From: Vairimorpha necatrix
Taxonomy: Eukaryota
DNA length: 64,000 nucleotides
Assembly: GCA_036630325.1 (NCBI GenBank)
Contig: CP142735.1
Coordinates: 186,001-250,000, forward strand
Direction: 5' to 3'
The notes beneath the pieces are model-generated. The model saw nothing but the letters and a program-made list of their open reading frames with translations. It was not told the DNA's origin and ran no database searches. Below are positions 11,280-46,686 of this stretch, piece after piece. A program made the translations under genes and the position numbers. Each line of letters begins with the position of its first letter. Position 1 is the first letter of the stretch.

Positions 11280-14026
11280 TGTTACAGTCAAAGTGTACAT
11301 TCCAGGCAATGTATACATTACCTAGTGAATGTATACATTCAATAAGATTTGTAGTTAAAGTATTCATTGTAACTGAAATGAACACATTACCTAGTGAATG
11401 TATACATTCACGAGCTCCCTCTAGTCAAAGTGTTGTATGTTAAATCCGTAGGTTAAATCGTTAAATTTGCTAGGAAACCTTAAACCTAACCTCTTTATTC
11501 GTGATGCACTGTGTGCTGTTGAATGTTGCTCTATCTGTGCAGTTTGAGAGAGTACACACTGGCTGATTGTTGGATGGTAAGTGAGTTATTTAAATTATAT
11601 GTGTCCATAGAAATTAATAATTTTTAATTATTTTACCCTAAAAATAAAATGGATAAACAACCAATGAAAGATAAATTCTACCAGCACATTAACAATACTC
11701 CACAAAAAGCTAACGGCTTTCGTATGAATACGGAAAGATATGCTCAACTAATAAGTGATGTTAAATCCGCTAAATCAGCTCAGAAAAAAGAAAATCGTCA
11801 CTTCTGGTTACTAAAACATTATGATACAGTGTATGTGAGTAATGTGGATAAACTAATTGCACCAATAGCAGATGAAAAAGTGCTGTATTATGTTACTGTT
11901 GAAGAATTGTTTGAAGTTTTATATGAAACTCATTTATCAATTGGACATGGAGGACGAGACAGAATGAAAAAGGAGCTTAACCTTCGCTTTAAAAATATAA
12001 CAGCACAAGATATTCAAATATTTTTAAATAATTGTGAAGTGTGCCTTAAAAAAAGGGCGAATGAAAAGAAAGGCTTGGTGGTTAAGCCAATGGTGTTTTC
12101 TCACTTTAATTCAAGATGTCAAGTAGATTTAATTGACTTCCAATCACAACCAGATGATAATTATAAATTTATATTGGTGTACCAGGACCACTTAACAAAG
12201 TTTGTCATTCTAAGACCCCTAAAGAATAAGACAGCATATGAAGTTGCTGATCAACTCCTTCAAATTTTTTTACTATTTGGGGCACCATCTATTTTGCAAT
12301 CGGACAATGGCAGAGAATTTGTCAACCACGTCATTGATGATTTCAAAGGTCTATGGCCTGAATTAAAAATTGTGCATGGAAAGCCCCGCCACAGCCAGTC
12401 TCAAGGCAGTGTGGAGCGTGCAAATCAAGATATTGAGAATATTTTAACCGCATGGATGCAACAGAATCAAACTAGTAATTGGAGTAGAGGACTGGGTTAT
12501 GTGCAGTTTATGAAAAATCGAGCCCTTCACGCTGGTATAAAGCGAAGTCCTTACGAGGCAATGTTTGGACAACCCGCCAAGGTCGGCCTTACCTCTTCTT
12601 CCCTACCACACGAGGCATTAAGCAGTATAAACAGTGAAGAAGATTTGGAAAATATTCTTAAAAATATCAATTGTAACGAAGAAAGTATCCAGGAGATTAC
12701 TCAAGTAGAAGTTAATGAAGAAGAGGATCTAGATCTAGAATCAGATAATCTTCGAGAAGGCGTCAGTGAATGGCTAATGAATGACAAGAAACAGTGTAGT
12801 TCATCACATGACAATGAGAACCGAAAATGTGATGGATGTGACATTTTACTCAATTCGGAATGCAATAAAATGTGCAATATTTGTAAGTTGCAATCACGCA
12901 TCAATTATGTTCGAGCAGAAGCAAAAGAAAACTTGAACAAGCAAGCTAAGCGCATGAAACAAATTTCTGATGCTTCGCATACTCCGGCGGAGGTTGGAAT
13001 GACAGTTAGAATTAAGGTACCGGAAGTTGATAGAGGACGGGGAGATTCACGTGCAGTACTAGGATGTTTATTAACAAAAACTGATGATGATTACTATCAA
13101 ATCGGAACACGTAATGGTATTTTAAAAGGATTATATTCTAGATCTCAATTTAGCGTGTGTCCTGAAAGTATATTAACGCCAAATGATATTGAAAACAATG
13201 CAATTGAATTGCCATTACGTACTATAGCTACCAAACAGTCGATAGGTAGCGGACAGGGATTTTCCAAATGCCAATGCAAAACAAAATGCGCAACAAAAAG
13301 ATGTGCATGCTTTAAAGCAAATAAATTATGCAACTCCAAATGTCATGGAAGGTTAAATTGTGGAAATAAATAACATTTTTTACTAATTTTACTTATGTTT
13401 ATGTTTCAAATTATTCTTTCTTTTATATTGTATTTTTTTGCTTTATATTTATATCTTTTCTAATTTTATGTTTTGTCGCTTTAGTGCAATCATCATAGAG
13501 TCAATTATTAATTCATTTTTTCGATATATTTTATTTAATATTATAACCTATTTATGTTGTTCTAACTTTTGTTCTAATTATTATGTGTTTCAATTTAAAA
13601 CTAAAATTTTTATTTAATATAACCTAGTTTTTACTGTTAAAACTCTATCATTGTGTGTGTTCTAATTTCAATTTCCCAATTCAACATTTATGTTTTAACC
13701 TGAATCTAGAACGGCGATCATAGTCTTGTGCCTGTAAAAAACTTGTTCCAACTTAATTTTATTTTAAAATTCATCAATTATCGCTTGACTGCAGTTGGTT
13801 AGTAACCCTGCTTACATTGTCTAGATAATACATGCATTCACTAGTTAAAATGTTCATTTTAATAGTGAGTAAACACTTTGACTAGAGGGAGCTCGTGAAT
13901 GTATACATTCACTAGGTAATGTGTTCATTTCAGTTACAATGAATACTTTAACTACAAATCTTAGTGAATGTATACATTCACTAGGTAATGTATACATTGC
14001 CTGGAATGTACACTTTGACTGCAACA
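11280..14026 (+). mobile_element. Ginger2/Tdd-type DNA transposon, full length
   Basis: ~155-bp TIRs (11280-11434 / 13872-14026) with TGTT..AACA ends and internal palindromes tgaatgtatacattca. Single integrase ORF, no RT. Confidence 0.9.
11649..13373 (+). CDS. Integrase-like transposase (KRBA2/SCAND3-like) with C-terminal Cys-rich CXC-type domain
   Basis: H-H-C-C finger, QVDLID, QSDNGREF, HSQSQGSVERAN, CQCKTKC..RCACFK..CNSKCH. Intact 574 aa. Confidence 0.92.
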   Translation: MDKQPMKDKFYQHINNTPQKANGFRMNTERYAQLISDVKSAKSAQKKENRHFWLLKHYDTVYVSNVDKLIAPIADEKVLYYVTVEELFEVLYETHLSIGHGGRDRMKKELNLRFKNITAQDIQIFLNNCEVCLKKRANEKKGLVVKPMVFSHFNSRCQVDLIDFQSQPDDNYKFILVYQDHLTKFVILRPLKNKTAYEVADQLLQIFLLFGAPSILQSDNGREFVNHVIDDFKGLWPELKIVHGKPRHSQSQGSVERANQDIENILTAWMQQNQTSNWSRGLGYVQFMKNRALHAGIKRSPYEAMFGQPAKVGLTSSSLPHEALSSINSEEDLENILKNINCNEESIQEITQVEVNEEEDLDLESDNLREGVSEWLMNDKKQCSSSHDNENRKCDGCDILLNSECNKMCNICKLQSRINYVRAEAKENLNKQAKRMKQISDASHTPAEVGMTVRIKVPEVDRGRGDSRAVLGCLLTKTDDDYYQIGTRNGILKGLYSRSQFSVCPESILTPNDIENNAIELPLRTIATKQSIGSGQGFSKCQCKTKCATKRCACFKANKLCNSKCHGRLNCGNK

Positions 14027-15490: not shown

Positions 15491-16784
15491 GGCGCTACTT
15501 AAAAATTCGCACCCCTAAAAAAAATTACATTGACCAATTAAATTTATATAAAAAAAAATATTTTTAACCCTTAAAATTATATTTAAAACAATATTTTTAT
15601 GAAAATATGAATTTACAAAAGTTAAAATATTTAAAAAAACAGTTATAACATATTATAAGTTCAAAAATTTAATTACTTTAACATAGAAAAAATATCAATT
15701 ATTTTTACGAAGGCTAATTTGATTGTTAATGGTTTTGAATATTCTATATTTTCTTTTTTCCATTTAAACTCATCTAACCAACATTTAATTCTTATTTTAT
15801 TTATTCCTCCACGCTTTCTATAATCATGCTTAAGATGCGACCACATATTTTCTACATAATTTGTATTTTGTCCTTCTTCATTACAAAATCCCATAGAGTG
15901 ATTTACCACACTATGGTGAGAACCAAATTCACTTATAGCACGTGGATAGGATGGATAACCATCAGTTACTATATCCGTGCCTACTTTTACATATTTTTTT
16001 AATACTAGTAAAATCGTTTCCCATTTTCTATTGGGTATTAGTTCCACAAAAAACTCTCTACAATTTCCTTCCAATACACCTCCTATTATCCACTGAATTC
16101 CAGGTTCAGAATCCAATCGACTAGACGGATTCGATACTATAATTCCATTACAAATAGCTGTTTCGTCTATTTGTATCCTCTGACCAACTCCACCTATCGT
16201 TGTAACAACAGTAGAACACTTGGAAATTGTTTCCATTATTATTTCTTTTACAGAAATATATGTTGGTTCAGAAGTTTCACACATGTTGATGGCCTGAAAA
16301 TTAGTATATGACAGACACCAACAATAAATGCAACGAAGAATTTTTTTAAATTCAATATCTAAAGATTCAAATTTAGAACCTTTATTTAATGAACATCTTC
16401 GTTTACAAATTTTTTTGCTACATTTGTACCCCTTTCCTTGAGAAAACAAAGATATGTTTTGAATAAACATAATTCCTTTGCACTGATCATTAGTACAGGG
16501 AATACAAGGATATAACAGTTGTTCTTCAATCCGTAGTCGATTGCCCTGTCATTATCAGTGAAAATAGGATTGTATGGATTGAATTGAAGCATTTCATCCA
16601 TCATCATGTTCATTATAAGGGATAGATAAAATAAAAAAATTTCACGTTCAAAATACCATTACTTAAAAATTCGCACCCCCCGGAAAAAAAATCCTTTAAA
16701 ATTTGATTTTATCTCATTTTATACCAAATAATTTTTTTTCAGTGAACGTATTTTTTAGGGGGGTGCGAATTTTTAAGTAGCGCC
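15491..16784 (-). mobile_element. Merlin DNA transposon (one frameshift)
   Basis: TIR ggcgctacttaaaaattcgcacccc, perfect 8-bp TSD aaaaatta. Transposase IQIDET, VTDGYPSY, VNHS, NTNYVENMW split over ORFs 16386-16613 and 15673-16470. Confidence 0.95.
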
Positions 16785-17271: not shown

Positions 17272-19601
17272 TTATGTCGAAATATAACTATATCCCAACG
17301 AAATCTTATGGTAGTATAACATAGAATTTTGCGACCCAATATAGGATATTATAAAATTAGTTATAACATCTTGATCTTAAGATATCTTATGATTTTACGA
17401 AATTAAAATTACTTTTAATAAAGAATAGTTTTAGAAAAACTTACTTCTAATATATGATAATATTGGCAAACCTGTTCATGAGATGTTAAGACCACCTTCA
17501 ATTAAAACGAAATATATGTATATATATCTGATTGTTATGTTAGTATTTTTTTTTGGAGAAAATATTTTATATCTGATCGTATAATATATACTCGTTAAAT
17601 CAGTAGTAGTTCAAAAAAGTAAAAAAGGACTCAACATTTTAAACTAATATTTTTTTGTATATCTTTTATATAGAAACCTCATTAATAACAATTTCTAATA
17701 TATATATAAAGTACTTTTTTGTTTAATATTTTGTTTTCGATATTTCTAAAATTTATTCCTTTTAAATCTGTTTTAAACTAAAAGCAAATTGAGAATTAGG
17801 AATATTTAAAAATACATCCTAATTAAAAATATTCATTGTTTATAATATAGTGTTATAACACTAAATATGATAACGTTTTGAATTTTAACATTTATTTATA
17901 TCAGTATATGGAGGGACACAAAAAATTTTAGCATTCTAAAAGTTTTCCTAAATTATCTATTTAAATTCTCATAATCATAAATAATAAAACTAGAATAATC
18001 ATCAAAATATTCTTGTTTACACATATCACACAATTCATCAGACTGATGCTCTATGAATAATATTAGTAAGTAAAATTATTTAAATAGTCGAAATGTCTAA
18101 AATTGCCCTTTATTCACCGTAAAACTGTTTCTAAATAGTCTATATTTATAATTTGATCTTAATTCTAATATCCCTTTGAATAATTGAATTATTTATTCAG
18201 ATAATGGTAAACTTATATCTATAGAAGTTTTCGCATACATTCATCACAATGATTATGTAAGAATCATACTTATGTTTGATTGGCAATAATAAGGTATAAA
18301 TGCGATCATTAAAATCATTATTTTCTACGGACTAGAAATATATGACCGAAGAAACCTTATGTTTATCAATCGATAGATTATATGACTAAATTTGGGTAAA
18401 GCTAATGTAGCGGAAGAGCTTCTATTATAATTATAGTAAAAAGCTGCAATTACAATTCTTGTGACAGTCCGTGTTTTTTCACTGTTAATATAATTTTTTT
18501 TATTTTATGCTCATGATCTTATTTATCAGCAAATGATTATTATACAATTTAATACTTCGGAAATTTGAGTATACAACTGTATTCCAACTTTTCAACTTCT
18601 CGCGACACGTGGGATGCGCAAGCGCTATAAGGTCTTGTCCATTGAAGTTGGTATAACTAACGGTACTCAAATTTCTGAAGTATATAATTCGTATAATAAT
18701 CATCATATATATAAAAGAATTTTATTTAATTTTTTACCCCTCTTTTTTATGGTTTTGTAAAATCCAAACTTCTTATTACAGCTTATTATGTTATTGTATT
18801 GTCAAATTTAAACTCAATGCTTAAATTTGATAATTGTAAGTGCGTATACTATTTATTAATGCATTTTTATTCTATTTATTATTTTTGTAAAACTCAGTTC
18901 CAAAATATCGTCAGAATCGTTTTTTAGAATTTATTTAACCCTTCTAGAAAAAATTCAAAAAAACATATACCAAAAATAAGTTGAATATAAGTGTTAACAA
19001 TTTAGCTTATAAGTTCCCAAAATTATCTCATTATAATTATAAAATGTTTTTAGCTCAACTTTACTCCTTATATGTTACTAAAAAGTATTTTTCAAAATCA
19101 TGTTTTCTCCTTTTTAAATTCAGTTATCCCAAAAATGGAAACTCAACAAAATTCAAGGATCAAAGACATATTATCAAACTAAACATTTAGATCCCGTTTT
19201 CAAAACGGGAAAGCATACGCTAGTTTGCTGATAAAAAAAGATCATGAGCATAAAATATAAAGATTATTACACTAGCAGAAAAAAAATTGACTGTCTTGGA
19301 TTAGATATTGTATAATACTCTATTCTTAAAAATACTATATATTCCGCAAATTTTCATTGTCATAAAAACTTAACTTATCTCTTTTATGCACCAACCCAAT
19401 CTTTGATTTATCATTGCCCATAAACAAAAAAATTTTATTTAATATTTTAGGAGGGAAATTTAAAATAAACAAAAATTGAAAAGAGCGTAGATTTTGAATT
19501 TAAAGGATTTTAAAGCAAAAATAAAACAAATTTTTGTCATAAATTAGTTGAAAAATATACAATCAAAAACTAAACAAAAACGTTAATTAATCTTTGTTCA
19601 A

Positions 19602-22600
19602 TGTATTTATTTATCATAATGAGGGGTCAAAATATCTAAATATATAACATCCCCCCTCCAGACGGTTAGTCTCACTTTACTCCCACCTCTCTATACCTTT
19701 TAAATCATAATGCCTCTTTTTAATTATCCTTCCGTTTTCAAGCCTAACAATATACGAGTCACTAGGGCATACTTCCAATATCATTCCCAAATCAACAAAT
19801 CTTCCTTTCATATACTTGGTCTGACCTCCTAAATTTTCTTTTTTCGCAACACGGACAATCTGATTTCTATAAAACTTTTCTCTTTTCCTTGCAACAAATC
19901 TCTTCGCGTATGTTCCTTCAGGTCCGTTTTCAATCATTATCTTTCCCGTTGTACCTTGAACAGCCTCTACCGGTGTATATTTTATTCCACTATGGTAACT
20001 TAAATTATAAATCTCAATGCTCTTCATAACTCTTTCCTCGAATGTTTTACCTTCAATTTTGGCTATACTCTTCCTCAACGTTCCAATAACCCTCTCCACT
20101 CTTCCATTGCTCCTATGAGCTTCTATGCTTACTTTCCTGTGCTCAATACTTAGATCTTTACATAGTTGTCTAAACCCTTCGTTAACGAACTCCTTACCAT
20201 TGTCCGTAATTATTTCTTCGGGCTTCTTCCCCTGGACACACATTTCTTTAACCCATTCAACAATCTTCTCACCTGTCTTAGCGTCAATTACTCTGTCCCA
20301 AACTCTTCTCGTAAAATAGTCGATAGCTACAACAATGTATTTTTTTTCTTCTCTATACTCAATCAAATCAAATGCTACCTTTTCTAAATATCGGCTTGTT
20401 GCTACAAAAACACATCCCCCGGATTTCTTTCTATTATTAATCTGACACACCTCACATTTACTAAGTTCGGCTTCTATATCTTTTTTCATCCCCGGCCAAT
20501 AATATTTGCTTTTCATCTCGTAATACACACTTATCATGCTTCTATGTCCTTTCAATTCATGATATTTCTCTATCAATTTGGGCCTGTCTTTTTCTTCAGG
20601 GATATCCGCCATTTTATTATTATCAAATTTCCGATAATTCAAGCCATTCTCTACGATTACATGTTTCTTCCACTTACCTATCTGTTGCTTAATTGCACGT
20701 TCTTCCATCTGTTTCTTCTTACTATCTTCTTCCGTATATATGCGGCCGATTGAATCTGCAACAACCATTATCTCCGGTTTTCTGCATTCTATCGTAAAGT
20801 CAAAATCTTGTATCTTCTCTATCCACCTATTGATCCTATCATTATTAAAATTTGCCTTGTTCCTAATTTCACTCAAGGCTTTATGGTCTGTCTCAATCTT
20901 AAATTTTCTTCCTCTGAGTTCGTATTCAAACTTTTTAATTCCCCAGAATACTGCGTACATTTCCTTTTCTGTTATCGCGTATCTACTTTCCGTTGGCGTA
21001 AACTTTTTTGAAGCCCACTGTACCGGAACCCACTCATTTAATCCGTTTCTCTGCAATAACACAGCTCCCATGCCAACGTTGCTCGCATCTTTTCGCTGCA
21101 AAAATTCTTTACTATAATCAGCTATCTTTAAACTTTTTAAATTTCTTAAACATTCTTTCAAACTTTCAAACTCTTTTTGCATTTCCTCCGCCCACTCGAA
21201 GTTATTCCCATTTCCCTTAAGCGCATTTGTTAAATGGTATGTCAACTTAGCGTAATCTTTAATAAAACTTCTAAACCATCCAGTTAATCCCAAAAATCTT
21301 CTTAATTCTGATACATTTGCTGGTGCTGGGTATTCTAACGCTTCATTCTTTTTAATTTCGCACGCCTGAGAATCCTCTCCATTCAGTGTCACCCCTAATA
21401 GCTTTACTTCCTTTTTACAGAATTGTATCTTGCTGATATTTATTTTCATATTATTTTTCTTAAATCGTTTTAGAACTTCTTTTAGCAGCTCATCGTGCTT
21501 TCTTTTCGTTTTTGCGTGAATTACTACATCATCCATATACACCTCTGCTCCTCCTCCTAACAGGTCGTCAAAAATCGTATTCATTGTCCTTTGTCATATT
21601 TGGGGCGAGTTCTTAAACCCTATTACCATACTATTCCACTCGTAAACTCTCCCATTGAATTCAAAAGCTGTTTTATGCTTATCCTCTTCGCAAATCCCAA
21701 TGTGGTAAAAACTGTCTTTAATATGTATCACAGTAAAAAACCTTGATCCCTGCGTTCCCCGCGTTACATCTCCAATTCGTGCCAATTCATACGGATCCTT
21801 ATCAACTATATCATTTAAAGCCATTAAGTTACTTACCAGTCTTATCTTCCCATTTGGCTTCCTAAGCGCCCTTACTGGATTCCGCCATTCCGATACTGAT
21901 CTTCTAATTATTTTCCTTCTTTCTAAACTCTTAATATGTTCTACAGTATCCGCAATAAGCGCTTGTTCAACCATTTGTCCTTTCTTCTTTACGACTTTTC
22001 CCTCTTCGGTTTTAATTCGGCATTTATCCAACTTACAATATTTAATTTCCTCCTCTTCGTCCGAAAATACCTCATGATACTTCCGTCTCAATCCATCTAA
22101 TTCCATATATTCAACTCTCTCACCTATAATTTCCCTGCTTCTCTTCTCTCTCTGCTCTTTTTTACACTTCTTATAATTATCTTCACTTAAACATTCTTCA
22201 TGATCCATCGCTGATCTTTTAAAAACTAAATACTTGGAATCACCTTTATTAAACCTATTATATTTACAATTTCTACTAATATGTCCTATTCTGCCACACT
22301 CATAACATCTAAAAAGCTTTCTCTTAAATCCAGTTCTTTCTGCACTTTCCGCTTCCATGGCCTTCTTAACTGTTTCCGTAATCATCAATGTCATGTTCCT
22401 TATCTCTTATTCTCTTCTCATTTCCATTTTCTTCCTTTATTTCTCTTCAATCAACTTTTTTCTTATTTCTTCAACTCCTCCTTCAATCGGAACATTCAAA
22501 ACAAAAAAATTTTTCAAATCTTCACTTCCTCTTCTGTAGACTTCTCTCTTCCATAATACTTCTTCAATTTCCTCTAATCTTAACTCATACATTATCCTCT

Positions 22601-22723
22601 CAAACTCACTATGATTTCTGAACTCTTGTCCACAGTCAACTCTTGTCAACTCATCATTAGGTTGGGCCCCCATGTATTTATTTATCATAATGAGGGGTCA
22701 AAATATCTATATATATATATACC
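19602..22723 (-). mobile_element. Complete compact Ty3/gypsy element with ~48-bp LTRs
   Basis: LTRs 19602-19649 and 22673-22723, 5-bp TSD ttcaa, PPT at 19650-19660, PBS tgggggcccaacc. Confidence 0.92.
19677..22688 (-). pseudogene. Single-frame gag-pol (short Gag, CCHC, RT, RNase H, IN) with 3 in-frame stops
   Basis: ORFs 22437-22688, 21594-22394 and 19677-21584 share one frame. Motifs CYECGRIGHISRNC, YMDD, DAS, TDNGKEF, SNGRVER. Confidence 0.9.
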
Positions 22724-22976
22724 TTCAATGATCTTTATTTAAAATTTATCACTTATTTTTCAATGTCTACAGAGTAACAACTCAATTAAAAAGATGACCA
22801 GATGGTTTTTTTTTAAAAAAATACGACCTTTAAATTTTTTAAATTCTCTGGCATTTTTGAAGAAATTCAAAATTTAATTAAATTTTTGCTAAAAATCAAT
22901 CGTAATGTCAAAATAATAGTTACAGTTGAAAATTTTAAAAGTTTAGGAATTCATTTTTTCTAAACTATATTATTAT

Positions 22977-24090: not shown

Positions 24091-25893
24091 TGTCACCGTT
24101 CGGACTGGACGCCGGGGAAAATGCTTACTTGAGAAGGGTAAAAATTTAAAAAAAATATCCGTTCGGACTGGACGCCGGGAAAAATGCTTACTTAAGAAGG
24201 GTAAAAAATTAAAAAAAATTGGTGTTTATTTTTTATTTGTTTTTAAAATTATTTTAAAAATAAGGGCATGAAAACAAAATTGAATAACAATGAAAGACAA
24301 GAAGTTTTTGTCTTTTTACAGACTGGTGTTGTTCCAACAAGGTTGGTAACAAAACAAGAAAGAGATGCTTTCAAAAAAAAGCACAAAAATTTATCCTTTT
24401 TGAGGATGTAATTGACGGCATCACAGAGCTCACGGTGAGATTTAAAGTAGGTCTATATAGATCATTAAGATTCTTTACCACCAACGAGCAACGATTCAAA
24501 ATCGATTATATAAAATTGATCCACGTCTCAAATAAGCATGCGGGACTGGACAGATTGTTTCCATTATTGCAAACAAAAGTCTACGACGCTTCACAAAAAG
24601 ATATCCAGAGGGTCTTGAATAGCTGTGATATATGTCAATCAAAGAGAAATCTAGTAACTAGACCAGTTATTAGACCAATTGTAGCAAAGTATCCAAGGGA
24701 AAGATATGTTGCAGACTTGATTGATCTCCGGCTATATCACGAACTCAATGAAGGATATAAATGGTTATTGAATATTGTAGATTCATTTACCAAATTTTGT
24801 TGGACGGTACCACTGTTTGACAAAACAGGTATAAGTGTGGGGAATGCCTTTGAAACATTGTTTAGAACATTTGGTTCTTGTTATATACTTCATACTGATA
24901 ACGGCAGAGAATTTGTAAATCAAACATTCGTCGATTTATGTCAGAAATATGAAATAAGACACGTAAGGGGGAGAGCTAGATGTCCATGGATACAAGGACA
25001 GATAGAAAAATGCAATCAAACAATAAAGTGGATGATTGCATCTACTCTCAGGACAAAAAATATTTTGGGGCAATGGACCAAGGTAAGAGAAGAAGTTACC
25101 TGGTCATATAATTATTTAAGACACTCTACTACGAGACAAACACCATTCTCTTTAATGTTTGGTAGACCCATTAGGGACATAATGGACGAGTCTAGAATCA
25201 CGGGCATTCTAGATTCGATCAATAGCGAAAATCATGAACAAGAGTTAGAGGAAGAAGAAATAGCTGAGGAAAGTTTATCAGATGTTCTAGATGGCAATAC
25301 AAATGAAGAAATACAGCAACTCTATGCTCTTAATAACACAAACCTTTTTTTAAATGAAATTTATCATGATACAGCTAGAATTCATACACAAACTGCTGCA
25401 GATAGAATGGTACAAAGAAGTATGTGGAGAAATGATTTCTTAGAATTTAAAATAGGAGATAGAGTCCTTATAAGACCTTACTTGGACAACAACGTAAATA
25501 CCCGAAGACATTCTCTTTATGAACATTTAGATGCTGAAGTCTATATTGTAACAGACATAATTCAATTTAATAAAGTAAAATTATGCAAAGAAGATGATAA
25601 TGGCATTATAATAGAAGAAATAAGTACTAGAGATCTAAGGTTGCTTGGTAATGAATAAAGTACTAAAAATTTTGTTTATTTTATTTTTCTCCCTTTTTCA
25701 TTATTCCCTCCCATTATTATAAAAAAAAAAACAAAAATTCCCCCCTCAAAAAATCAGAAGAAATTTGAGCTGTCTTAAAGACGAACATTTATTTGTTCTT
25801 ATTTTCTGGTTCGCCCCTGACTGAAGAGATTTTTTTTTTAATTTTTTACCCCCGGCGTCCAGTCCGAACGGGCGTCCGGTCTGAACGGTGACA
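24091..25893 (+). mobile_element. Ginger-like integrase DNA transposon with short GC-rich TIRs
   Basis: Ends tgtcaccgttc..gaacggtgaca, repeated ccgttcggactggacgcc motifs at both ends, 5-bp TSD ataaa. Confidence 0.9.
24268..25658 (+). CDS. Integrase-like transposase (N-terminal frameshift; main ORF 24435-25658)
   Basis: H-H-C-C finger, YVADLID, HTDNGREF, QGQIEKCN, C-terminal FKIGDRV SH3-like region. ATG after a GGG motif at 24268. Confidence 0.85.
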
Positions 25894-29769: not shown

Positions 29770-31020
29770 GGTTAAGTTCTCGACTTACCCCCCCCCCCCC
29801 CACCCCTAAAAAAAATAAAAAAAAATAAAAAAAAATATAAAAAAATAAAAAATAAAAAAAAATAAAAAAAGGGAAAAAATAAAAAAAATAAAAAAACGTT
29901 TAATTCTCGACTTAACCCCCCCCCCCCCAAAAAAAAAAAAAACAAAAAAAATTATTCCACAATTGTAAAGTCTATTACAGGAATAATATCATAAGTTACA
30001 ATACTAAAATTACCTATTTGAAAAAATTTTAACATTTTATCTAATAGAGTTTCACGATATATTAATTTGAATCTATTAATGTAAATCTTTCTTACAAGAT
30101 TCATAATAGTACCATGACTAGTTCCGCCTTTTCTTAGTTCTCTTTTAATAACCGACCACATTCCCTCTATAGTCTGAGTATGCGCACCAGTTATATTATC
30201 AACAAAATTTTGGCTGTGATTCACAGTCAAATGAAGATACTCATATTCTACACAGATTGTTTGAATATCACTATATCCACGCCAACAATCTGTCACAATT
30301 GTGGTCCCCGGAGCAATTTTTCTTGTAATTAATTCAACAAGAGTAGCTCTTGTTCTATTTTCTACGATCTCAAAGAAAAAAGAATTTGCATCCCCTCTCA
30401 CAACGCCTCCAACTGCCCATACTTGATATTGAAGAACCCTTCCCGCATGGTTTTTACTTTTTACAAGTAAAGTTTCATCAATTTCAACAATACAACCGAC
30501 GCCGCCAATCGTTTGATTGTTTATATATGTTGAATAAGAGACGTACACGGCGTTATTAAAACGCGTAAACCATCTTGATACCGTACATTTACCTATATCA
30601 AGTTCTAACGTGGCGGCCAAATTACTTGAACCCTTTACCCATTCGCAAAGCAATATTAAAAGATTCTCAATAGGCAATTTTGAGTTCTTAAAAACGCTTT
30701 GTTTCATTATGGTTCCTTTGTTAGAACATTTTTTACCATCACGTCTTGAATAACAACGATAGTTTTCAGTGTTGGTCCGATTTTGAGTCATTGGTATATT
30801 GCATTTATTGCACATAGGGACCCTCAAAATGATTTTTGCAATTAAAAATTGCATTAACTCATTTTTTTTATAGATGAGTTTTCTAAATTCTTTAATTCTC
30901 ATTATGGGTCAAATTTTTTATTTTTTTTATTTTTTCCCCTTTTTTTTATTTTTCCCCTTTTTTTATTTTTTTTTATTTTTTTTAGGGGTGGGGGGGGGGG
31001 GGTAAGTCGAGAACTTAACC
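29770..31020 (-). mobile_element. Intact Merlin DNA transposon
   Basis: Near-perfect >40-bp TIRs starting ggttaagttctcgacttacc, perfect 8-bp TSD gaaaattc. Confidence 0.95.
29952..30902 (-). CDS. Merlin/ISXO2-like DDE transposase, 316 aa, intact
   Basis: N-terminal Cys finger, IVEIDET, VTDCWRGY, VNHS, HTQTIEGMW. Confidence 0.93.
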   Translation of the reverse strand: MRIKEFRKLIYKKNELMQFLIAKIILRVPMCNKCNIPMTQNRTNTENYRCYSRRDGKKCSNKGTIMKQSVFKNSKLPIENLLILLCEWVKGSSNLAATLELDIGKCTVSRWFTRFNNAVYVSYSTYINNQTIGGVGCIVEIDETLLVKSKNHAGRVLQYQVWAVGGVVRGDANSFFFEIVENRTRATLVELITRKIAPGTTIVTDCWRGYSDIQTICVEYEYLHLTVNHSQNFVDNITGAHTQTIEGMWSVIKRELRKGGTSHGTIMNLVRKIYINRFKLIYRETLLDKMLKFFQIGNFSIVTYDIIPVIDFTIVE

Positions 31021-31675: not shown

Positions 31676-32877
31676 AATTACTAGTTTGATTATCTTGCAT
31701 TCATGATAATTAAAATATTCTCAATATCTTGATTCGCACGCTCCACAATGCCTTGAGACTGGCTGTGGCGTGGCTTCCCATGCACAATTTTTAATTCAGG
31801 CCACAAACCTTTAAAATCATCAATGACGTGGTTAACAAATTCTCGAAAATTGTCCGATTTCAAAATAGATGTGCCCCAAATAGTAAAAAAAATTTAAAGG
31901 AGTTGATCAGCAACTTCATATGCTGTCTTATTTTTAAGGGATCTAATAATGATAAACTTTGTTAAGTGGTCCTGGTATACCAATATAAATTTATAATTAT
32001 CAACTAGCTGTGATTTTAAGTCAATTAAATCTACTTGACATCTTGAATTAAAATGAGAAAACACCATTGGATTAACCACCAAGCCTTTCTTTTCATTCGC
32101 CCTTTTTTTAAGGCACACTTCACAATTATTTAAAAATATTTGAATATCTTGTGCTGTTATATTTTTAAAGCGAAGGTTAAGCTCCTTTTTCATTCTGTCT
32201 CGTCCTCCATGTCCAATTGATAAATGAGTTTCATATAAAACTTCAAACAATTCTTCAACAGTAACATAATACAGCACTTTTTCATCTGCTATTGGTGCAA
32301 TTAGTTTATCCACATTACTCACATACACTGTATCATAATGTTTTAGTAACCAGAAGTGACGATTTTCTTTTTTCTGTGCTGATTTAGCGGATTTAACATC
32401 ACTTATTAGTTGAGCATATCTTTCCGTATTCATACGAAAGCCGTTAGCTTTTTGTGGAGTATTGTTAATGTGCTGGTAGAATTTATCTTTCATTGGTTGT
32501 TTATCCATTTTATTTTTAGGGTAAAATAATTAAAAATTATTAATTTCTATGGACACATATAATTTAAATAACTCACTTACCATCCAACAATCAGCCAGTG
32601 TGTACTCTCTCAAACTGCACAGATAGAGCAACATTCAACAGCACACAGTGCATCACGAATAAAGAGGTTAGGTTTAAGGTTTCCTAGCAAATTTAACGAT
32701 TTAACCTACGGATTTAACATACAACACTTTGACTAGAGGGAGCTCGTGAATGTATACATTCACTAGGTAATGTGTTCATTTCAGTTACAATGAATACTTT
32801 AACTACAAATCTTAGTGAATGTATACATTCACTAGGTAATGTATACATTGCCTGGAATGTACGTTTTGACTGTAACA
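31676..32877 (-). mobile_element. 5' half of a second copy of the Ginger2 element at 11280
   Basis: TIR and first ~145 codons near-identical to 11280-12085. Remainder diverged, with stops. Truncated at the Merlin end. Confidence 0.95.
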
Positions 32878-33231: not shown

Positions 33232-35050
33232 TGTCAAGCGCCCAGGGCGCACGTGCGCCCAGCGCGCACAAAAACGAAGTTTTTGCCGGGTTCGAGCGCA
33301 GTGAGAACAATTTTTTTTTTCCGAAGGAAAATTAAGGAATAAAAAATAATAGATTTGTTTTACTTTAAAAAGATAATTAAATTGTTTAGATTTACAGAAG
33401 TTTTTTTTTGCATGGGAATATTTTTGATATTGGAATCTTTTTAAACTCAAGATAATATGTTGGGTTCGGGAATCCTTATAAGTAAAAGTACTGACAAAAT
33501 ATATAAACTAATTTTTTATTTTTTTAATCAAATTTAAATCTACTATAACTTCATTTCCTTCTAAATTTAACTTTACTCGATTGTTAGATAAAATTTCTAT
33601 TACTATAGACTCTTTATGATAGAAAGATTCAAGTTTTTTTTTCTTAGTTTTTTTATTATTATCAAAATCTTTTTTCAATAAAACAGTATCACCTACTTCA
33701 AAATCATAAATAGAATTGTGTACCGCGCGTCTATCCATTCGTGCAAAGTATTTTTTTTGGTAACTCGAAAATACACAGTCTTCTTTAGATTTTTCTTCCT
33801 TTTTAACACAATCGATTTCATTATCAACAGACACAGGACATATTTCTCTATCTAACTCTAAAGACACTTTATTCTCAGGTTCTAAATTTTTACGAACTAC
33901 TGTGTTGTAACCAGCTCTGTTAAACATTTTCTCAAATGGAGTAAAAGAACTCGCAGAATGAACTGCTTGATTATAAACACTAGTAACCTTTTTTAGACAA
34001 TCAATCCACCTTTCACTTCGTTCTGATGTTTCTTCGTCCATTAATTTTTTTGATAATAACCTTGTGATTGTTTGGTTAAACCGTTCCACCTGACCCTGTG
34101 TCTGTGGATGTCTAGGTCTCCCTTTTATTAGAAGGATTTTATATTTTGATGCAAGATCATACATCAATTTGTTCCTAAACTCCTTACCATTATCACTTTG
34201 AATGATCCCAGGTACACCATAATATTCAAATAAATCCTCCAAACACTCTATAACACACTCAGCTGTCTTACCTTTTAATGGATATGTTCTGGCAAATTTT
34301 GAATATACATCCAAAATAGATAATATCCAGCAATACCCATCGTTAAACTCCTTGTATGATCTCATATCAATAAGATCTATCATTAGGCGTTCCCATGGAA
34401 ATTCTGCTGTAATATGTTTCATTTTTTCCTTTGTCTTCAAAGGCTGACATTGAGCGCAAATTTTACATTCACGTACAACATCACGTATCAATTCCCTTGG
34501 GATTGAAAAATATAAACATTTACTTTTTAGGTATAGGGCATTCTGACCTAAATGCCCATCTACGTGAAGTTTTTGCATTTCTAACTTCATCGCACAAATA
34601 TCCGTTTGTGCAAAAACCTTTAAATGTAGATTGTCGATACCTCTTAAGTAAAGATGATTATCTACAATTGTAAAGTGTTCAGCCTTTTTCCTTAATCTCG
34701 CCAAAGAAAACCTCGAAATATCTTTTACGACTTTGTTTTCTACAATAATATCTAGAATATTTTTATATTCTTCCGAGTTTTTCACAGGTAAGACCATTTG
34801 AGGGATGTTATGAAATATTTTTTAAAATGGTGTTGTTTTTAACTTATTTATATTTTTAAGGTTTTTTTATAACTGAGTTTAGCTCAGCGGTCAGAAATTC
34901 TGAAACGAACTGGTCAAATTTTAAGAGGAAGGGTTCGATCCCCGCGCGAGCCATTTTTCATAAGCACCCTTAAAAAAATGAAAAATGGCTCAAAAAGCGG
35001 GAATTGGGCCGTGTGCGGGCTGGGCGCACGTGCGCCCCGCGCGCGCGACA
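33232..35050 (-). mobile_element. Ginger-like integrase DNA transposon, second short-TIR family
   Basis: TGTC..GACA ends, imperfect TIRs containing the palindrome gggcgcacgtgcgccc. No TSD match. Confidence 0.85.
33508..34797 (-). CDS. Integrase-like transposase, 429 aa, intact
   Basis: H-H-C-C finger, LMIDLID, QSDNGKEF, HPQTQGQVERFN, FEVGDTV. Confidence 0.92.
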   Translation of the reverse strand: MVLPVKNSEEYKNILDIIVENKVVKDISRFSLARLRKKAEHFTIVDNHLYLRGIDNLHLKVFAQTDICAMKLEMQKLHVDGHLGQNALYLKSKCLYFSIPRELIRDVVRECKICAQCQPLKTKEKMKHITAEFPWERLMIDLIDMRSYKEFNDGYCWILSILDVYSKFARTYPLKGKTAECVIECLEDLFEYYGVPGIIQSDNGKEFRNKLMYDLASKYKILLIKGRPRHPQTQGQVERFNQTITRLLSKKLMDEETSERSERWIDCLKKVTSVYNQAVHSASSFTPFEKMFNRAGYNTVVRKNLEPENKVSLELDREICPVSVDNEIDCVKKEEKSKEDCVFSSYQKKYFARMDRRAVHNSIYDFEVGDTVLLKKDFDNNKKTKKKKLESFYHKESIVIEILSNNRVKLNLEGNEVIVDLNLIKKIKN

Positions 35051-39430: not shown

Positions 39431-40884
39431 CAGTCCTTTTCATTTTTATAGACACCTCGTTTCATTTTTATAGAACCCTCATTTCATTATTATAGACACC
39501 TTGTTTCATTTTTATAGAACCCTCATTTCATTATAGACACCTTGTTTCATTTTTATAGACACCTTGTTCTAAAATTTATTTTACTTTCCTTTAAAATTTT
39601 TAAACCTTAAAATATGAGAAACCTAAATGTCAGAGAAGAACTTGAGGAATATCGTACAGAAGAATCATTTGTCGAGATAGAAGATGAAACGCAGTCTTCT
39701 GCCCCAAGAAAAACTAGGAAAATGGTTACCAGGTCGATAATCGAAAGTTTTCTTTCGTTACTTGACACTGGTATGAAACTTATTGATATGGAAGTTGCTT
39801 TAAATCTCAGTAAGTCTAGCGTCAAACGCCTATATAAAAGATATATTACAGGAGAATTTACCAATCTTTCAACTTTTAAAACGGCAGGACAAAAAAAGAG
39901 TGAATCTTTAAAAAATATTTCTATGGTTTCAAATATTATTGCATCGGAAATAGCCCCGAATCCTTGTCTAGGTCTTTATAATTTATCCGATAAATTGCAA
40001 AATGTAAATTGTACGGGACATTACTCTAAGTCAACTGTTTGCAGACTTGTTAAAAAATTGGGGTATAGTTCTAAAACCCCGACCTTGATTTCACTAAATA
40101 GAAACAGTCCTCAGAACAAGCTGTTAAGGTCTCAATATGCGAGAGTAATAGATACCATATCGAATGATAATTTAATATTTCTCGATGAAACTGGTTTAAA
40201 TCTGCACCTTAACAATATTTTGGTTATTCTTTAAGAAATACTAAGTGTTGTGTAACGGTCCCGAATTCGAAAGGGACTAATGTTTCTTTAATGTGTGCTA
40301 TAAGCGTTAATGGATTATATGCGCATAAAACCAAAGTCGGAAGTTTTAAATCTGCAGATTTTGTCGAATTCATTAACAATAATTTACCTATATGTGAGCA
40401 AGAGGAAAACAGAATTTTAATATTGGATAACGCATCCATACACAGAACAGCCGAAGTAGCCGCCGCTCTTAGAAACAAAGGATACAGTCTAAAACTTCTC
40501 CCTCCATATTCTCCACAACTAAACCCAATCGAAGAGTTTTTTAACAGTTTCAAGTCCCGAGTAAAACAGAGACCTAGACCAACAACCACTCCTTTGTTAA
40601 TTGATTGTATTGAGGACGTGTTGAACACAGAAGTATTCGTCATGGGTGGTTACTTTTCTCATATGAGAGAATTTATTGAGAAAGCTCTTGTCAATGCGGA
40701 TTTTTTCTGAATTAATATAATTAAAAATTATAATTTAAAATTTCTAAGATATTTTCATTGTTTGGCATGTAAATATTGATGTTTAGATTGCGTTGCCTCT
40801 TCTTTACGATTCAACTATATAAATCAATTATGAAAAAATCAAATATATTTTATAACAAGGTGTCTATAAAAATGAAACAAGGTG
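39431..40884 (+). mobile_element. IS630/Tc1-mariner DD34E DNA transposon
   Basis: TA flanks, ~26-bp imperfect TIRs, about six tandem ~21-bp tttcatttttatagacacc repeats at the left end. Confidence 0.9.
39614..40710 (+). pseudogene. DD34E transposase with one frameshift
   Basis: HTH-like N-terminus, IFLDETG, ILDNASIH, then 34 residues to SPQLNPIE. Frame change near 40210. Confidence 0.9.
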
Positions 40885-40886
40885 TA

Positions 40887-43800
40887 AATCTTCTACAACC
40901 AACATCAATTAAGAAAGTGTTATTATCAAGCGAGTCAACTACCATTCTCCGATTAAATACTTTGGAGCACCTTTTTTATTTATGCCTTCGTTCCTTATCA
41001 TCACTATTTCCCCCCTTCGAAATTGTATTCCATAGGTTTCCTTTCATGCTTAGTTTTTAATTTTAGTATTTGCAGTAATTGCGTTTTTTCAATTTCTCAG
41101 CATTTTCTTCATTACATGCTTCTGTTGGAGTCATTATAATTCCCGTGTGAAATGTGGTGTTGTATACGTGTAAAGCACGTGTTAATCCTTGTGTCAGTAG
41201 TTTTCCGGTAATATTTTTATAAATAAGATCCTGCAAAGTCCTGTTAAAACGCTCTACCCGTCATATTGATTGATGATGGAATGGCGAGGTATAATGAAGA
41301 TCAATATTCTTATCAACGCATGATTGTTTAACTGAATTCCCAAATTTTCTTTCGATTGATCTAGAATTATGTTTTTATCCTTACTTTTCATTGATCTCTT
41401 AATAAATTCTGCGACTTTTGCGGGTTTCGCGATTTAATTATCTTAGCAAATCCGTAGCTTGTAAAATAATCATTTCGGCGATTATGTATTGGTTATTAAT
41501 AGGGCCAACAATATCAATGACAACCTCCTCTCCCTTCTCGTAAGATGTTACATATAGGAATCTTCTCTTTTTTGGATTATATTTTGTACAAATAGTGCAT
41601 CTTTTTAGAAACCTTTCTTTTCACCTCTTCCACGTTTTTTCCCTTAATCTTCTTTTCTCGATTCATATTTATAGATTGTATCCCTCTATGCAAGAGCTCT
41701 TTATGGATTTGCTTTATCTGTTCTCCCATCCAAACTGTTCTTTCAACTTCATTTATCGTAGGCTGCGAATCTAATTGTAGGAGAGGACTAATTTCTGCTG
41801 AAAAATTGGCAGGGTTACGGCTCAGACAGTCTACGTGTGGGGCCTCCTTTCATTTTTTATACTTTAAATTAAAACTAAAATTCGCAATTCTCGCCAACCA
41901 TCTTTGTATTCTTAACGACTTTATTTCTCCCTAATTAAGTGCTTCTGAGGCTTTATGGTCCGTTATTACCTCAAAATCAGTACCATAAAAAGTACTCAAA
42001 ATGTTCATTGCCCCAAAGTATTGCTAGGCATTCCTTTTACTGATGCTGTATTTTATTTCCGTTTCCTCAGTCTCCTGATTGCAAAAGCTACGGCTTTATC
42101 TTCACCTTCGAACTCTTGGGATAATATCGCAGCTATCCCACTGCTTGACACATCAGTCTCTAATTTAAATCGCTTAGAAAATCTGGTTGTGTCAATTCCG
42201 TGCTATGTTTAAGTGAATTTATGAGGGCTAGGGATGTATTGTTTTCTGCTTCTCTCCAATAAACGTTTTATCGCCCTTTAACAAACCATAAGGGGGTCCG
42301 TCCGTCTATTAATGCACAATTGGCAATGAATTTTCTATAGTAATTTATCAGTCCTAGGAATTCCTGTACTTTCTTCTTATCTTTCGGAAGCTCTAGATCG
42401 TCGAGCGCCTGTGTTCGTTTTACACAAGGTAGTACTTTATTATAGGTTATTTTGTAGCCCAAAAATTTCACTTCCTCTTTTTGACTATTGATTTGTCTAT
42501 ATTGATATTCATACTATATTGTTTAAATGTATCTGTAACTCTCTTATATGCCTCGTCATGTTCTATCTCATTCCTACCAAAAACTCGAATGTCGTCCACA
42601 TAGCAATAACACGACTTACCGAGCTCACTATTCAGAACATGGTCCATATATCGTTGAAAAATAGCTGGGCTATTTTAAATCCTTGTGGCATTACTCTCCA
42701 CCCATATAGCACATGCTTGTATCGGAATGCTGTTTTGTGTCTATCTCTAACACTTAATGGTACCTGAAAAATCCGTCATTCAGGTTGATCGTAGAAAAAA
42801 AACTTCATATCTCTTAAATTGCATAATATTTCGTCGATATTTGGTAATGAATAACGATCCAGTTCAACAAGATTGTCAATGCCACTAAATTAGTCGTTAT
42901 TCTAACCTTTCCATCCGGCTTTATTACTGGTCGAAGATTATTTAACCAGGAGGATTCGACTTACATATGTATCCATTATCAATGAGTGTCTTTATAGATT
43001 TATCCGCTTCAAACTCTAGCTTTTTTGGTAAAGGGTATACCTTTTCCACAACCTTACATCCTTCTTTTGTTTTTATTTCACAAATGTATTTAAATTCATC
43101 TTTGTCCATCACCTTCTTTATCGTGTTTATCCCATCAAAATTTTCTCAGATTTAACCTTTGGGAGGACATAGAAATCGGCCGTACATTTAATGGTTTTAT
43201 ATTTAAATTCGAGTGAAACATATTGTTTGATACTAAATTGTTCTTCCAAACAGGTCCAGAATTTTATTTCTTCATTCAGTTTTTTAGGTATGAGTGATAG
43301 TCTTTGTATCGCTGAGTAACTCATAAAGTTATATTTTGCCCCAGTGTCATTTAAAACTGCAACTTTTTTGTCTTTAACGATGATAAAACTCTCTTTATTA
43401 AAAATTTCAACAATATCTTCGCTTATCTCATTGATTCTCTTGGATCTATCGGCCTCTTTTCCGTTATTTCTAACATTTTTAGGATACTTTCGACATGACC
43501 TAGCGAAATGACCCCGTCGTCCGCATTTATAACATCCTGTAGAACTAGAATTTTCGTTAATTTTCAAAGAAGTTAATCTTGCTAAAAGAGAATTTAGGGT
43601 ACATGACCGTTTGGAACCCGCTTTGGGAAAATGAACCCGCATTGGGAAAATGAACCCGCATTGGGAAAATAAACCCGCATTGAAATTTTAAAGGACCCCC
43701 TTTAAAAAAATGGCAAAATTGGCAAAAACAATGTTTGTTGAGGCAGATGAGGTTTTTAGTGATGTAATGTATTTATACGTGGAATATAAAGAAAAGTTTA

Positions 43801-44919
43801 TTTTGGAAACATTTGATGCTTAATCGGCGTGCGCCTTGCTCGTTTCTGTAACTAGTAGAATACTGCTTTTTCCTTGAGGTGATACAAGAAAATGTATAAC
43901 CTGTTTCTATATGATCTCTAATCAATGGGCAGCATATGATGTCACATTAGCTAAGCAAAGGGATGGAGCACAGTACTAAGAATCACTCCATAAATGCCGT
44001 AACCTCTGGCGATTCTGAGTCACAATATTATATAATTTAGTTGGTTTCGGCTCATTTCTATAAGAGATATTTGATCTTAACATAAACAAAGAAGAACACT
44101 ATGAGTACCTTTTACAGTTTCACTAGGCTTTTCAAATTCCCAAAAATTAACGGATAAATTGTCTTCTGTCATTATTTAAAATAAATCATCAAGTCCTTTT
44201 TTTATAACTTTTTTTTATTTTTCCCTTTTTTTAAATTTTTCAAAGCGGCGGGTTTATTTTCCCAAAGCGGGTTCATTTTCCCAATGCGGGTTCATTTTCC
44301 CAAAGCGGGTTCCAAACGGTCATGTACCGAATTTAGGTTGTTCTTCTTGTCCAATTGTTTCTCTTTTTTCTTTTCTTCTTCCATGCCATGATTTCTCTGG
44401 AGTTCCCGAGCTCCAATTGATTTAACTGACCATAGATATTTTTTTATATCGCTATTATCTGCATGCAGTCCTTCTGCGATGATGTCTACAATATCTAAAT
44501 CGCTCAACTTGTAGATACTAGCCTTTTCTTTTACCCTTTCTATAAAGGCTACAATGCCTTCGTTCTCATCCTGGTTTAATGGGTATATCTCACCCAGAGA
44601 AATCTCTTCCTTATCAAATACTTCTTTGGTGGACTCTAACCATTTTTCATATATTAGAGCGCACTTTCTTCGCGACTCTAGAAACTCCTCATACCATTCT
44701 ATAATGGCGTACTCTGCTCTTCCTATGATGTACTTAATTTCTTCTTCATCGTTTTGTTAAAAAAGAAAAACATCATTCCCAATCTTTTACATTTTTTAAA
44801 GGGGGTTTCTATTGTTATAACCATGTTTATGGGCTTTGATGTCCCATTCTCCACCATGTCAATAGATTTATTGTTGTCCTTAAAAAGTTAGGGGGTTATA
44901 AAATTTAAAATAAATATCA
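40887..44919 (-). mobile_element. Degenerate Ty3/gypsy with short (~63-bp) 5' LTR, interrupted by a MITE
   Basis: Putative LTR 44857-44919 followed by PBS tggtggagaatg. CYKCGRRGHFARSC, NDTGA protease, RT, RNase H and IN remnants. Confidence 0.88.
43598..44328 (+). mobile_element. Non-autonomous MITE, copy 2
   Basis: Same TIR as 27483, 8-bp TSD gaatttag, inverted relative to copy 1. Confidence 0.93.
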
Positions 44920-46686
44920 TCAATATGGATTCAACCAAATGATTTTTTTTCTTATTTTGTTGTACATGCCTATTCCGAAATTGGTTCAGATAAAAGTATA
45001 TTTTAACATTTAATGATACCGAGAACTATAATGAAATTAAGTTTTGTGAAATTTTTTTCCCAAGAAACTACCACTGATGATTTTTTCAGTAATGACTCTT
45101 CTAATATTATTCTTGATCAGTATTACAAGGTAGCCAGAAACTATTTTATAATTATCCTGAGCACCCTGATATTAAAAAGAAAATATACGAATTATTTTAT
45201 AAAAATAAACAGATCGATATCGGATACTATTTAGGAAATTTAAACATTACACTCGAAAGTTTATTTAAAAGAACTCTATGCTCCAGAATATTTATATGAA
45301 ATATATTTTATTTTAACTCTTGCTTATCTTAGACATAAGTTTTTATATAAATTTTTTATTAAGGATATTATTATGTATTAAAACTAGATAATTAAGAGCA
45401 TTGACTTAAAATTTGATGGAAAATGTTGCATAGGTTCACACAATTATTTAACGCAAAAAGACTTATTAAGCTAGATATTGCATTGAATGGAGCAAGTACT
45501 GTAGAATACCAATACGCAGCCGAAGATTTGTATTATATTATACTAATAAAACAATAAGACCATTTATACCTAATGTTGAAAATAGTTATTCTAGGTGGAC
45601 GTCTAATCAAGGTTTTCTTCAGTTATTCATTAATAAATTTTTAATTATTAACAAACTTTCATTTTTTAATTAATTCTTTGTTTAATCGTAAAACTTGTGA
45701 TATTTGTGTATAGATGTGGAGTAGCCTTAATTCTATGTCTTGAAGATATTTACAAGAATATGTGTATTTATTAAATATGTGAGATAATTCATCTTTTTTT
45801 GTATGGGTGATATGTTTTTATAATTATACTATCTTTTGTAAACAACTAATATAAATTTTTATAGTTCAGTTCATCGTAGTCAATAAAAAAATATGGCATT
45901 GTTTGTAGGCAAATTCAATATACTATTTATTAACGCATGGTCTAGCTTAGTTATACATCGATTTTAACGATAAGTTGTACTTCCAGGATCAGATTTTATA
46001 CAAATGGGAGTCAAAAGTAATATACAAGTTTCCCTATCTAAAATTATGTACAATAGCCGAGGGAGTTTTCAAAACAAATATGCAAATACCGCGCAAAAAT
46101 TATTCATTTACATTCTTAATCAATATTATATTTAAAGGTAGAAGTATTGTTATTGTTTAGAACACCTATAGTCGCTGTTTTACTACGCTTACTTAATTCA
46201 AAGGTTCTAAAATATCATAAGAAGAAAGATTCAATATTAAAAAATTTGAACTATAGTTGTAATAAAAAATGAGAAGCAACGTCTGCGACAAAAAAGCTTT
46301 TTTATTGACTAAATAACCAGTAAGACCTTAGTAAACGTTTAATGATATATTATTCGAATTGTTATTATTTTTAAAAATCAAAAAACTTCATCTAAATAGA
46401 ACATTGAACATTATATCGATTGATTACATAGAATAAGAATTCAAAATCAACCATGCAATTATCTTGCATATGAAGATTAAATCATAATCAGATCAAATAT
46501 TTACCAATTCAAAAAGACATATAACTTTTCTATTATATATATTATATTTATCGCATCTACATCTAAATTTTTATCAATGTTGATATTTGTCGCATTATTA
46601 AGGTTTTTTCTTTTTTATGAACTCTAATATTCACTTGAGACTGTCTTTTTAATATGTTGTATCAATCTATTTTTACAAAGATATAA

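Follow-up and report, generated by a model that had tools for sequence, protein, structure and literature searches.

Vairimorpha necatrix carries a clade of miniature LTR retrotransposons that is real, that is Ty3/gypsy by descent, and that has no aspartic protease. The protease was lost once, anciently, across the clade, and the clade has multiplied recently under purifying selection. A recurrent signal, AATAAA followed after 12 nt by a Tyr codon, suggests how such an element might make free Gag: we infer that internal polyadenylation would turn UAY into UAA and yield a Gag-only mRNA. The reference point is one decayed copy in a stretch of 64,000 nucleotides (assembly GCA_036630325.1, contig CP142735.1, positions 186,001 to 250,000 of the forward strand), called the window here and numbered from its first letter.

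The window copy

The element occupies 19602-22723 on the minus strand (3,122 bp) and is flanked by TTCAA on both sides, upstream of the element at 22724-22728 and downstream at 19597-19601, as an earlier sequence-only reading had described with its 5-bp TSD and size of about 3.1 kb. The same reading gave 48 bp for both LTRs; this is right for the 3' LTR (19602-19649, TG...CA), but the 5' LTR (22673-22723) measures 51 bp and has a decayed, TA-expanded start. CCCC (22694-22697), an in-frame ATG (22686-22688) and AATAAA (22677-22682) are all present in the 5' LTR as had been proposed, but the position of AATAAA within the LTR differs between families. A 13-nt PBS complementary to tRNA-Pro(TGG) (22660-22672) overlaps codons 1-5, and so does lie inside the coding sequence; the polypurine tract is at 19650-19659.

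The frame has 998 codons when read from the ATG whose A is the last LTR base and whose TG opens the PBS, or 1,003 codons from the ATG inside the LTR, in keeping with the single frame of about 1,004 codons previously reported. It contains three stops (codons 79, 89 and 360) and no frameshift. The mini-Gag (22308-22673), which combines one small domain of helices with a long helix, holds the first two (22437-22439 and 22407-22409) and is followed by a CCHC zinc knuckle (22266-22307, codons 123-136). A charged linker of 55 aa, predicted to be disordered, then stands at the place of the relatives' protease (22101-22265). The RT (21120-22100) begins near codon 192 and includes YMDD at 21528-21539 and the third stop at 21594-21596; RNase H (20802-21119, from Pfam) and an integrase (19677-20594 with its stop codon, from Pfam and AlphaFold), built of HHCC, a DDE core and a C-terminal beta domain, complete the frame. 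Pfam matched the knuckle, RT, RNase H and integrase but no protease, and the order first read from the letters (a Gag of about 120 aa, knuckle, linker, then RT, without D-T/S-G) stands. With its stops, and with His at the position of the first RT catalytic Asp, the window copy is dead. One contig set, possibly the source sample, contains the element as a single 3.1-kb piece.

Mobile DNA occupies nearly the whole window. Integrase-like ORFs that stand alone without RT lie at 11628-13373, 24294-25658, 31894-32529 and 33508-34821; these we take to be KRAB-A/Ginger-like. Transposase frames at 15673-16548, 29952-30908 and 39611-40710 are presumably Merlin/IS1595-like and Tc1/IS630-like, judging from their motifs.

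A protease-less clade in microsporidia

Across the 12 contigs of the genome (15.0 Mb), the window element has 44 DNA matches, and 94 RT matches were scored out of 1,232 candidates, all at least 62% identical; by manual count, 49 of the 94 lie in stop-free frames of at least 1,000 codons. At least eight protease-less families are present, 3,066-3,219 bp long, with LTRs of 38-49 bp and one frame of about 1,000-1,030 codons. Among 50 loci examined, 39 have both LTRs (38, 39, 48 or 49 bp), and 32 of these pairs are identical. The window copy's four siblings (93-94% identical) are dead too, with longest element frames of 238-305 codons, and a sibling copy at G000:C10:383484-387727 is split by an insertion of about 1.1 kb near query position 1800. 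All six LTR matches of the window family fall in known copies; neither a solo LTR nor a non-autonomous derivative turned up. Family G (L104-L111, L113), with 38-bp LTRs and a total of 3,066-3,078 bp, is smaller than the window element and is primed by tRNA-Arg. Family F (L095-L099) is young, its LTRs end in TA instead of CA, and its post-knuckle AATAAA is missing.

The protein search returned 85 matches, about 46 of them in the protease-less group. The named relatives are V. necatrix (nearest, 92%), V. ceranae, Nosema granulosis, Enteropsectra breve and Nematocida minor. A further match, on a 3-kb 'Clostridium' MAG contig, we take as contamination, and a metagenome contig carries a 3,163-bp clade copy with 39-bp LTRs. 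These names, together with the CCC promoters described below, point to a microsporidian host. The public gene model P0019 of the window family ('endonuclease', 895 aa) is 10 aa short between RT motifs, probably through a false intron spanning a stop. The idea of a streamlined lineage is supported by these results and extends across microsporidia.

An RT-RH tree was built from 92 of 114 rows, the other 22 being too short or nearly duplicate, and in it the protease-less group forms one clade with SH-aLRT 99; rows labeled as lacking a protease outside it are often fragments. A midpoint-rooted 45-row subset again recovers the clade as monophyletic (100/99), with the window copy inside, and places it as sister to the family of a second window element at 40887-44919 (100/98). 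In both trees the clade nests among protease-bearing elements. Its members have the Ty3/gypsy domain order RT-RNase H-integrase with a Ty3-like RT, a tRNA PBS and polypurine tract, and direct LTRs of the form TG...CA (TA in family F) with a 5-bp TSD, inside the 4-6 bp expected of Ty3/gypsy. Ty3/gypsy elements normally encode a protease and have LTRs of at least 100 bp. The aspartic protease expected between Gag and RT is absent from the clade, which is therefore filed as a derived, non-canonical Ty3/gypsy variant.

The protease-bearing sister family

The window also holds a decayed copy of the sister family, at 40885-44927 on the minus strand (40887-44919 in the sequence-only reading). That this relative, with the same atypical RT motif, keeps its protease proved correct: the frame at 43127-43687 matches the retropepsin family RVP_2 in Pfam (E 2.9e-5). 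Besides the RT motif, the sister family (L115, L117, L123) shares with the clade the CCC promoter, the same LTR/PBS start with the PBS in codons 1-5, a short LTR (69 bp) and the same internal AATAAA signal, placed at the start of the protease. It differs in its FDTG protease, longer Gag, length of 3.45 kb and tRNA-Ala-type PBS, and the A-N5-T target described below is absent at the two sites seen. In most of the remaining protease-bearing families the LTRs measure about 170-340 bp, and in one 70 bp, a few of these LTR calls being unreliable. The tiny LTR and coding-region PBS are common to the clade and its sister, which indicates that short LTRs preceded protease loss. A non-coding element of 731 bp, whose inverted ends of 81 bp consist of 19-bp subrepeats, lies inside the gag of the sister copy at 43598-44328.

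Absence and loss of the protease

Motif inspection, Pfam, an HMM trained on the genome and AlphaFold all failed to show an aspartic protease in the clade. The HMM, built from 15 proteases of which 14 came from this genome, scored 42-93 bits on all seven held-out elements of the same genome and at most 3.9 bits on all 53 clade proteins, some of which are fragments. The linker in the 39 proteins with both ends measures 29-179 aa (median 55) and is 44% charged, versus 25% in proteases. In the AlphaFold model of an open-frame relative (40 sequences, pLDDT 79.5), residues 155-206 are disordered (pLDDT<50), and every ordered part is assigned to Gag helices, RT, RH or IN; Foldseek on the clade model returns CaMV, Ty3 and retroviral RT. 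A Gag profile run against 1.84 billion proteins found a protease in none of 25 chosen matches among 150 listed, most of them short fragments. Residues 1-215 in the ESM Atlas gave Gag/knuckle clusters (best 0.88), which serve as a lead. The RVDCG motif singled out in the sequence-only reading is unconserved and sits in the disordered N-terminus, and on these two grounds it is ruled out as a catalytic motif.

The junction seen in the window copy recurs in all four close siblings, whose knuckle-to-RT span is 139-143 codons versus 140 in the window copy, and neither a signal nor a fold of an aspartic protease was detected in the clade. The shared junction and the monophyly of the clade together indicate one ancient loss, not a deletion specific to a single copy.

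Multiplication, selection and target sites

Five families supply 29 copies, selected for open frames, with identities of at least 98.9% and pN/pS of 0.24-0.41. Between six families, RT, RH and IN are 56-68% identical with synonymous sites saturated, Gag is 36% identical and the linker 21%. Catalytic motifs are intact and conserved in six of six representatives, and the status of a non-autonomous LTR element, which would lack intact RT and integrase, was rejected accordingly.

Perfect 5-bp TSDs flank 36 of the 39 two-LTR loci. The preferred target is strongly palindromic, A-(T W W W A)-T, with A at -1 in 36/36 and T at +1 in 35/36 (L002-L030, L094-L113, L148); the window copy's own site has C at +1. 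This target is specific to the clade, which implies its own integrase.

LTR, promoter and priming

CCC lies 16-36 nt from the LTR end in all nine resolved LTR types (eight protease-less and the sister), and an in-frame ATG lies inside the LTR in eight of the nine; the window family appears alike by eye. Of 78 host-like ORFs, 50 have a CCC no more than 30 nt from the ATG, against a background of 9%, and the LTR of 38-49 bp would thus be a host-type CCC promoter. In Encephalitozoon cuniculi, 5'UTRs are shorter than 7 nt and AAUAAA is recognized stochastically, according to excerpts of PMC2803860. If transcription starts a few bases before the LTR ATG, R+U5 and the first cDNA jump would be just 16-23 nt or so, far under the redundancy of about 100-125 nt that Tto1 strand transfer needed (PMC3061985, in part). 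The PBSs match the genome's own tRNA-Pro(TGG), Pro(AGG) and Arg(TCG) over 13-14 nt (63 tRNA genes).

A predicted poly(A) signal past the zinc knuckle

In the window copy, the predicted coding-region poly(A) site (22230-22250, minus strand) consists of an in-frame AATAAA (22245-22250), 12 nt, and the Tyr codon TAT (22230-22232). Of 54 post-knuckle segments, 23 contain the corresponding protein pattern N-K-x4-Y, whereas 2,000 shuffles gave a mean of 1.2 and a maximum of 6; other NK-to-Y spacings after the knuckle occur 0-4 times each, and elsewhere in the proteins only 6 of 185 NK pairs have Y at +4. The distance from the knuckle floats over 2-18 residues and the internal spacing is fixed. In 16 of 17 cases with DNA, AATAAA encodes the NK of the boundary N-K-x4-Y, versus 133 of 262 for other NK pairs (p=3e-4), and this synonymous-codon bias indicates a nucleotide signal rather than a protein site. 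The clade has a candidate poly(A) signal at a fixed distance before an in-frame Tyr codon, and cleavage after UA followed by a poly(A) tail would create UAA.

The signal is not universal. Its exact form is present in 31 of 51 clade copies and in four of the eight families in this genome, 31 of 54 proteins are without N-K-x4-Y, and the rows behind all these counts are related, not phylogenetically independent. In families C and H the AATAAA is not followed by Tyr at +4, family G carries ATTAAA and a Leu codon instead, and F shows no such signal; the signal-poor families F and G are nonetheless young and numerous. In C and H (L007, L018, L094, L112), a TGY codon lies two codons past AATAAA, and cleavage after UG there would give UGA, at a different spacing.

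Among 21 protease-bearing families, TAY stands at +4 in 13 of 42 in-frame signals around the protease versus 9 of 118 in the RT-IN region, and 13 of the 21 families have one such signal each, before the protease or just after it. In loci L126-L145, L115 and L123 the signal lies either where Gag meets the protease or some 40 aa past the protease. Such placement predicts short messages for Gag alone or for Gag-protease. Host ORFs are flat for the signal spacing (8/122), and at 50 host 3' ends a YA peak 14 nt past AATAAA was not seen.

Gag structure

The Gag model shows a helical bundle of about 70 residues, a helix of 55 residues and the knuckle. The compact fold nearest to it is the C-lobe of Arc (Z 6.2, rmsd 2.5 over 64 aa), a match that ties with unrelated helical chains and lies within helical-model noise; Foldseek gave Arc at E 3.8-4.5 and nothing at E<=0.001, and a PDB sequence search with the Gag alignment gave knuckles only. 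The model suggests that Gag may be a single capsid lobe.

Mechanism and alternative explanations

The reading we prefer, at about even odds, is that a short polyadenylated RNA supplies free Gag, and that the full-length RNA supplies an uncut Gag-RT-RH-IN protein that copies and integrates the element. Under it, an old microsporidian branch of Ty3/gypsy descent, having lost its protease once, would spread with its own RT, RNase H and integrase. The CCC promoter in the LTR would start RNA a few bases before the LTR ATG. Some transcripts would be cut and polyadenylated 14 nt past the internal AATAAA, the tail making the Tyr codon UAA, and a Gag of about 150-165 aa (capsid-like lobe, long helix and knuckle) would accumulate in excess without frameshift or proteolysis. 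Read-through RNA would be both genome and message for the uncut Gag-linker-RT-RNase H-integrase protein, in which the disordered linker may serve as a tether. The signal's presence in protease-bearing relatives suggests that the polyadenylation step predates the loss, and it would have made the protease dispensable. Between the options first offered for the lineage, an unprocessed polyprotein or protease supplied in trans, the evidence leans to the former, with internal polyadenylation added. A fuller version, in which the element needs no proteolysis at all and combines an uncut polyprotein, a single-lobe or unclosed capsid, a repeat of about 20 nt and a poly(A)-set Gag:Pol ratio as a general feature of microsporidian single-ORF gypsy elements, falls somewhat short of even odds. 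Several points count against the preferred reading: the exact signal is far from universal, host 3' ends show no 14-nt peak, the counted rows are related, the redundancy reported for Tto1 exceeds the proposed first jump, Ty1 particles are reported to need processing by protease in order to function (PMC6952103, in part), and retropepsins of this genome could act in trans.

The elements might instead be protease parasites, with their own RT and integrase and a polyprotein cut by the retropepsins of co-resident families. Such enzymes are plentiful (at least 146 retropepsin domains over the cut-off, from 150 PF13975 matches listed), processing is the rule in Ty1 and Tf1 (excerpts of PMC6952103 and PMC7175516), and the linker is disordered and exposed. 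We consider this unlikely: the linker has no conserved hydrophobic site at 21% identity between families, the RH/IN junction is a predicted helix, and the clade's Gag is much shorter than the sister's, with BLASTP of the knuckle-RT part failing to align, which makes co-assembly doubtful. Of 17 protease-bearing rows, 5 have a cleavage-like motif at the RH/IN junction, and none of 40 protease-less rows does (4 and 11 rows skipped); at the upstream junction the counts are 4/21 versus 2/45. The test is weak, most controls being unmatched. A host protease, through proteasomal trimming or another cellular enzyme, could also free RT-RH-IN by cutting the charged linker, which is disordered and varies in length; this is less probable again, as a conserved site is absent and the codon bias marks N-K-x4-Y as a nucleotide signal.

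It is also conceivable, with a lower chance still, that the loss and autonomy are real but that the AATAAA/Tyr pattern reflects a motif of the protein, or common descent in A-rich DNA, instead of a poly(A) site, leaving Gag:Pol at 1:1 in a capsid-poor ribonucleoprotein. The four families without the exact signal, the relatedness of the rows and the missing 14-nt peak at host 3' ends fit this account; a fixed spacing at a floating position, the codon bias and recurrence at different boundaries in distant families do not. It is highly improbable that the protease is missing through a deletion in single copies, or that a cryptic fold of it is hidden in another part of the frame. One protein has a sub-threshold Pfam match to Peptidase_A17 (E 0.19), but this overlaps its RNase H domain; linkers are long enough for a fold (107-179 aa) in 4 of 39 proteins, but shorter than 80 aa in the other 35. 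The junction is common to the siblings and all families, and the ordered parts of the model are accounted for.

Relation to known elements

TRIM, LARD and DIRS elements are likewise small or without protease. RT and integrase are missing from TRIM and LARD, which are non-autonomous; DIRS elements rely on a tyrosine recombinase where the clade has a DDE integrase and TSDs. Tf1 and Tf2 of Schizosaccharomyces pombe are single-ORF Metaviridae like the clade, but are 4.9 kb long, have LTRs of about 350 bp and depend on protease; Tf2 leaves PR-RT uncut (PMC7175516, in excerpt). In Ty1/copia elements (Drosophila copia, BARE, EVADE), single-ORF as well, excess Gag comes from a shorter RNA as in our model (bioRxiv 2020.01.24.919167, in part), but that RNA is spliced, the protease is kept, and the superfamily is another. 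Polyadenylation within a coding region that turns TAT into TAA and truncates the protein is reported for human EPRS (Yao et al. 2012, via PMC5546720), a housekeeping gene and not a mobile element.

The closest precedent is in microsporidia. Parisot et al. 2014 (PMC4202319, in part) presented single-ORF Ty3/gypsy elements, among them Anncaliia algerae retro L (50-bp LTR, 3,127 bp); their other families mostly have LTRs of 100-270 bp and lengths of 3.6-4.3 kb. Retro L resembles the clade in LTR end, Gag, knuckle and RT motif, and contains AATAAA+12+TAT, as read by eye. The word 'protease' has no occurrence in the main text and searched supplement of that paper, where the loss and the internal signal go unremarked. 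Term searches of PMC13174016, PMC7313128 and PMC2474625 returned nothing on protease loss; PMC2474625, in the text searched, gives five domains to 'nearly all' Nosema bombycis Nbr elements, a wording under which an exception may already be in print. No description of a protease-less autonomous gypsy clade or of poly(A)-created Gag stops was found in the literature searched, most subscription papers lying outside the search. What is new here is the AATAAA, 12 nt and Tyr codon just past the knuckle.

Implications

LTR retroelements are treated as requiring a protease for maturation, a capsid of two domains and LTRs hundreds of bases long. A long-lived, recently multiplying clade of about 3.1 kb without a protease, and perhaps without a two-domain capsid, represents a natural minimum, and it makes testable whether RT and integrase work uncut. 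If the model is true, a stop made by polyadenylation would be an extra route to excess Gag besides frameshift, read-through, splicing and selective decay, and the Gag/Pol balance of microsporidian single-ORF elements would be explained.
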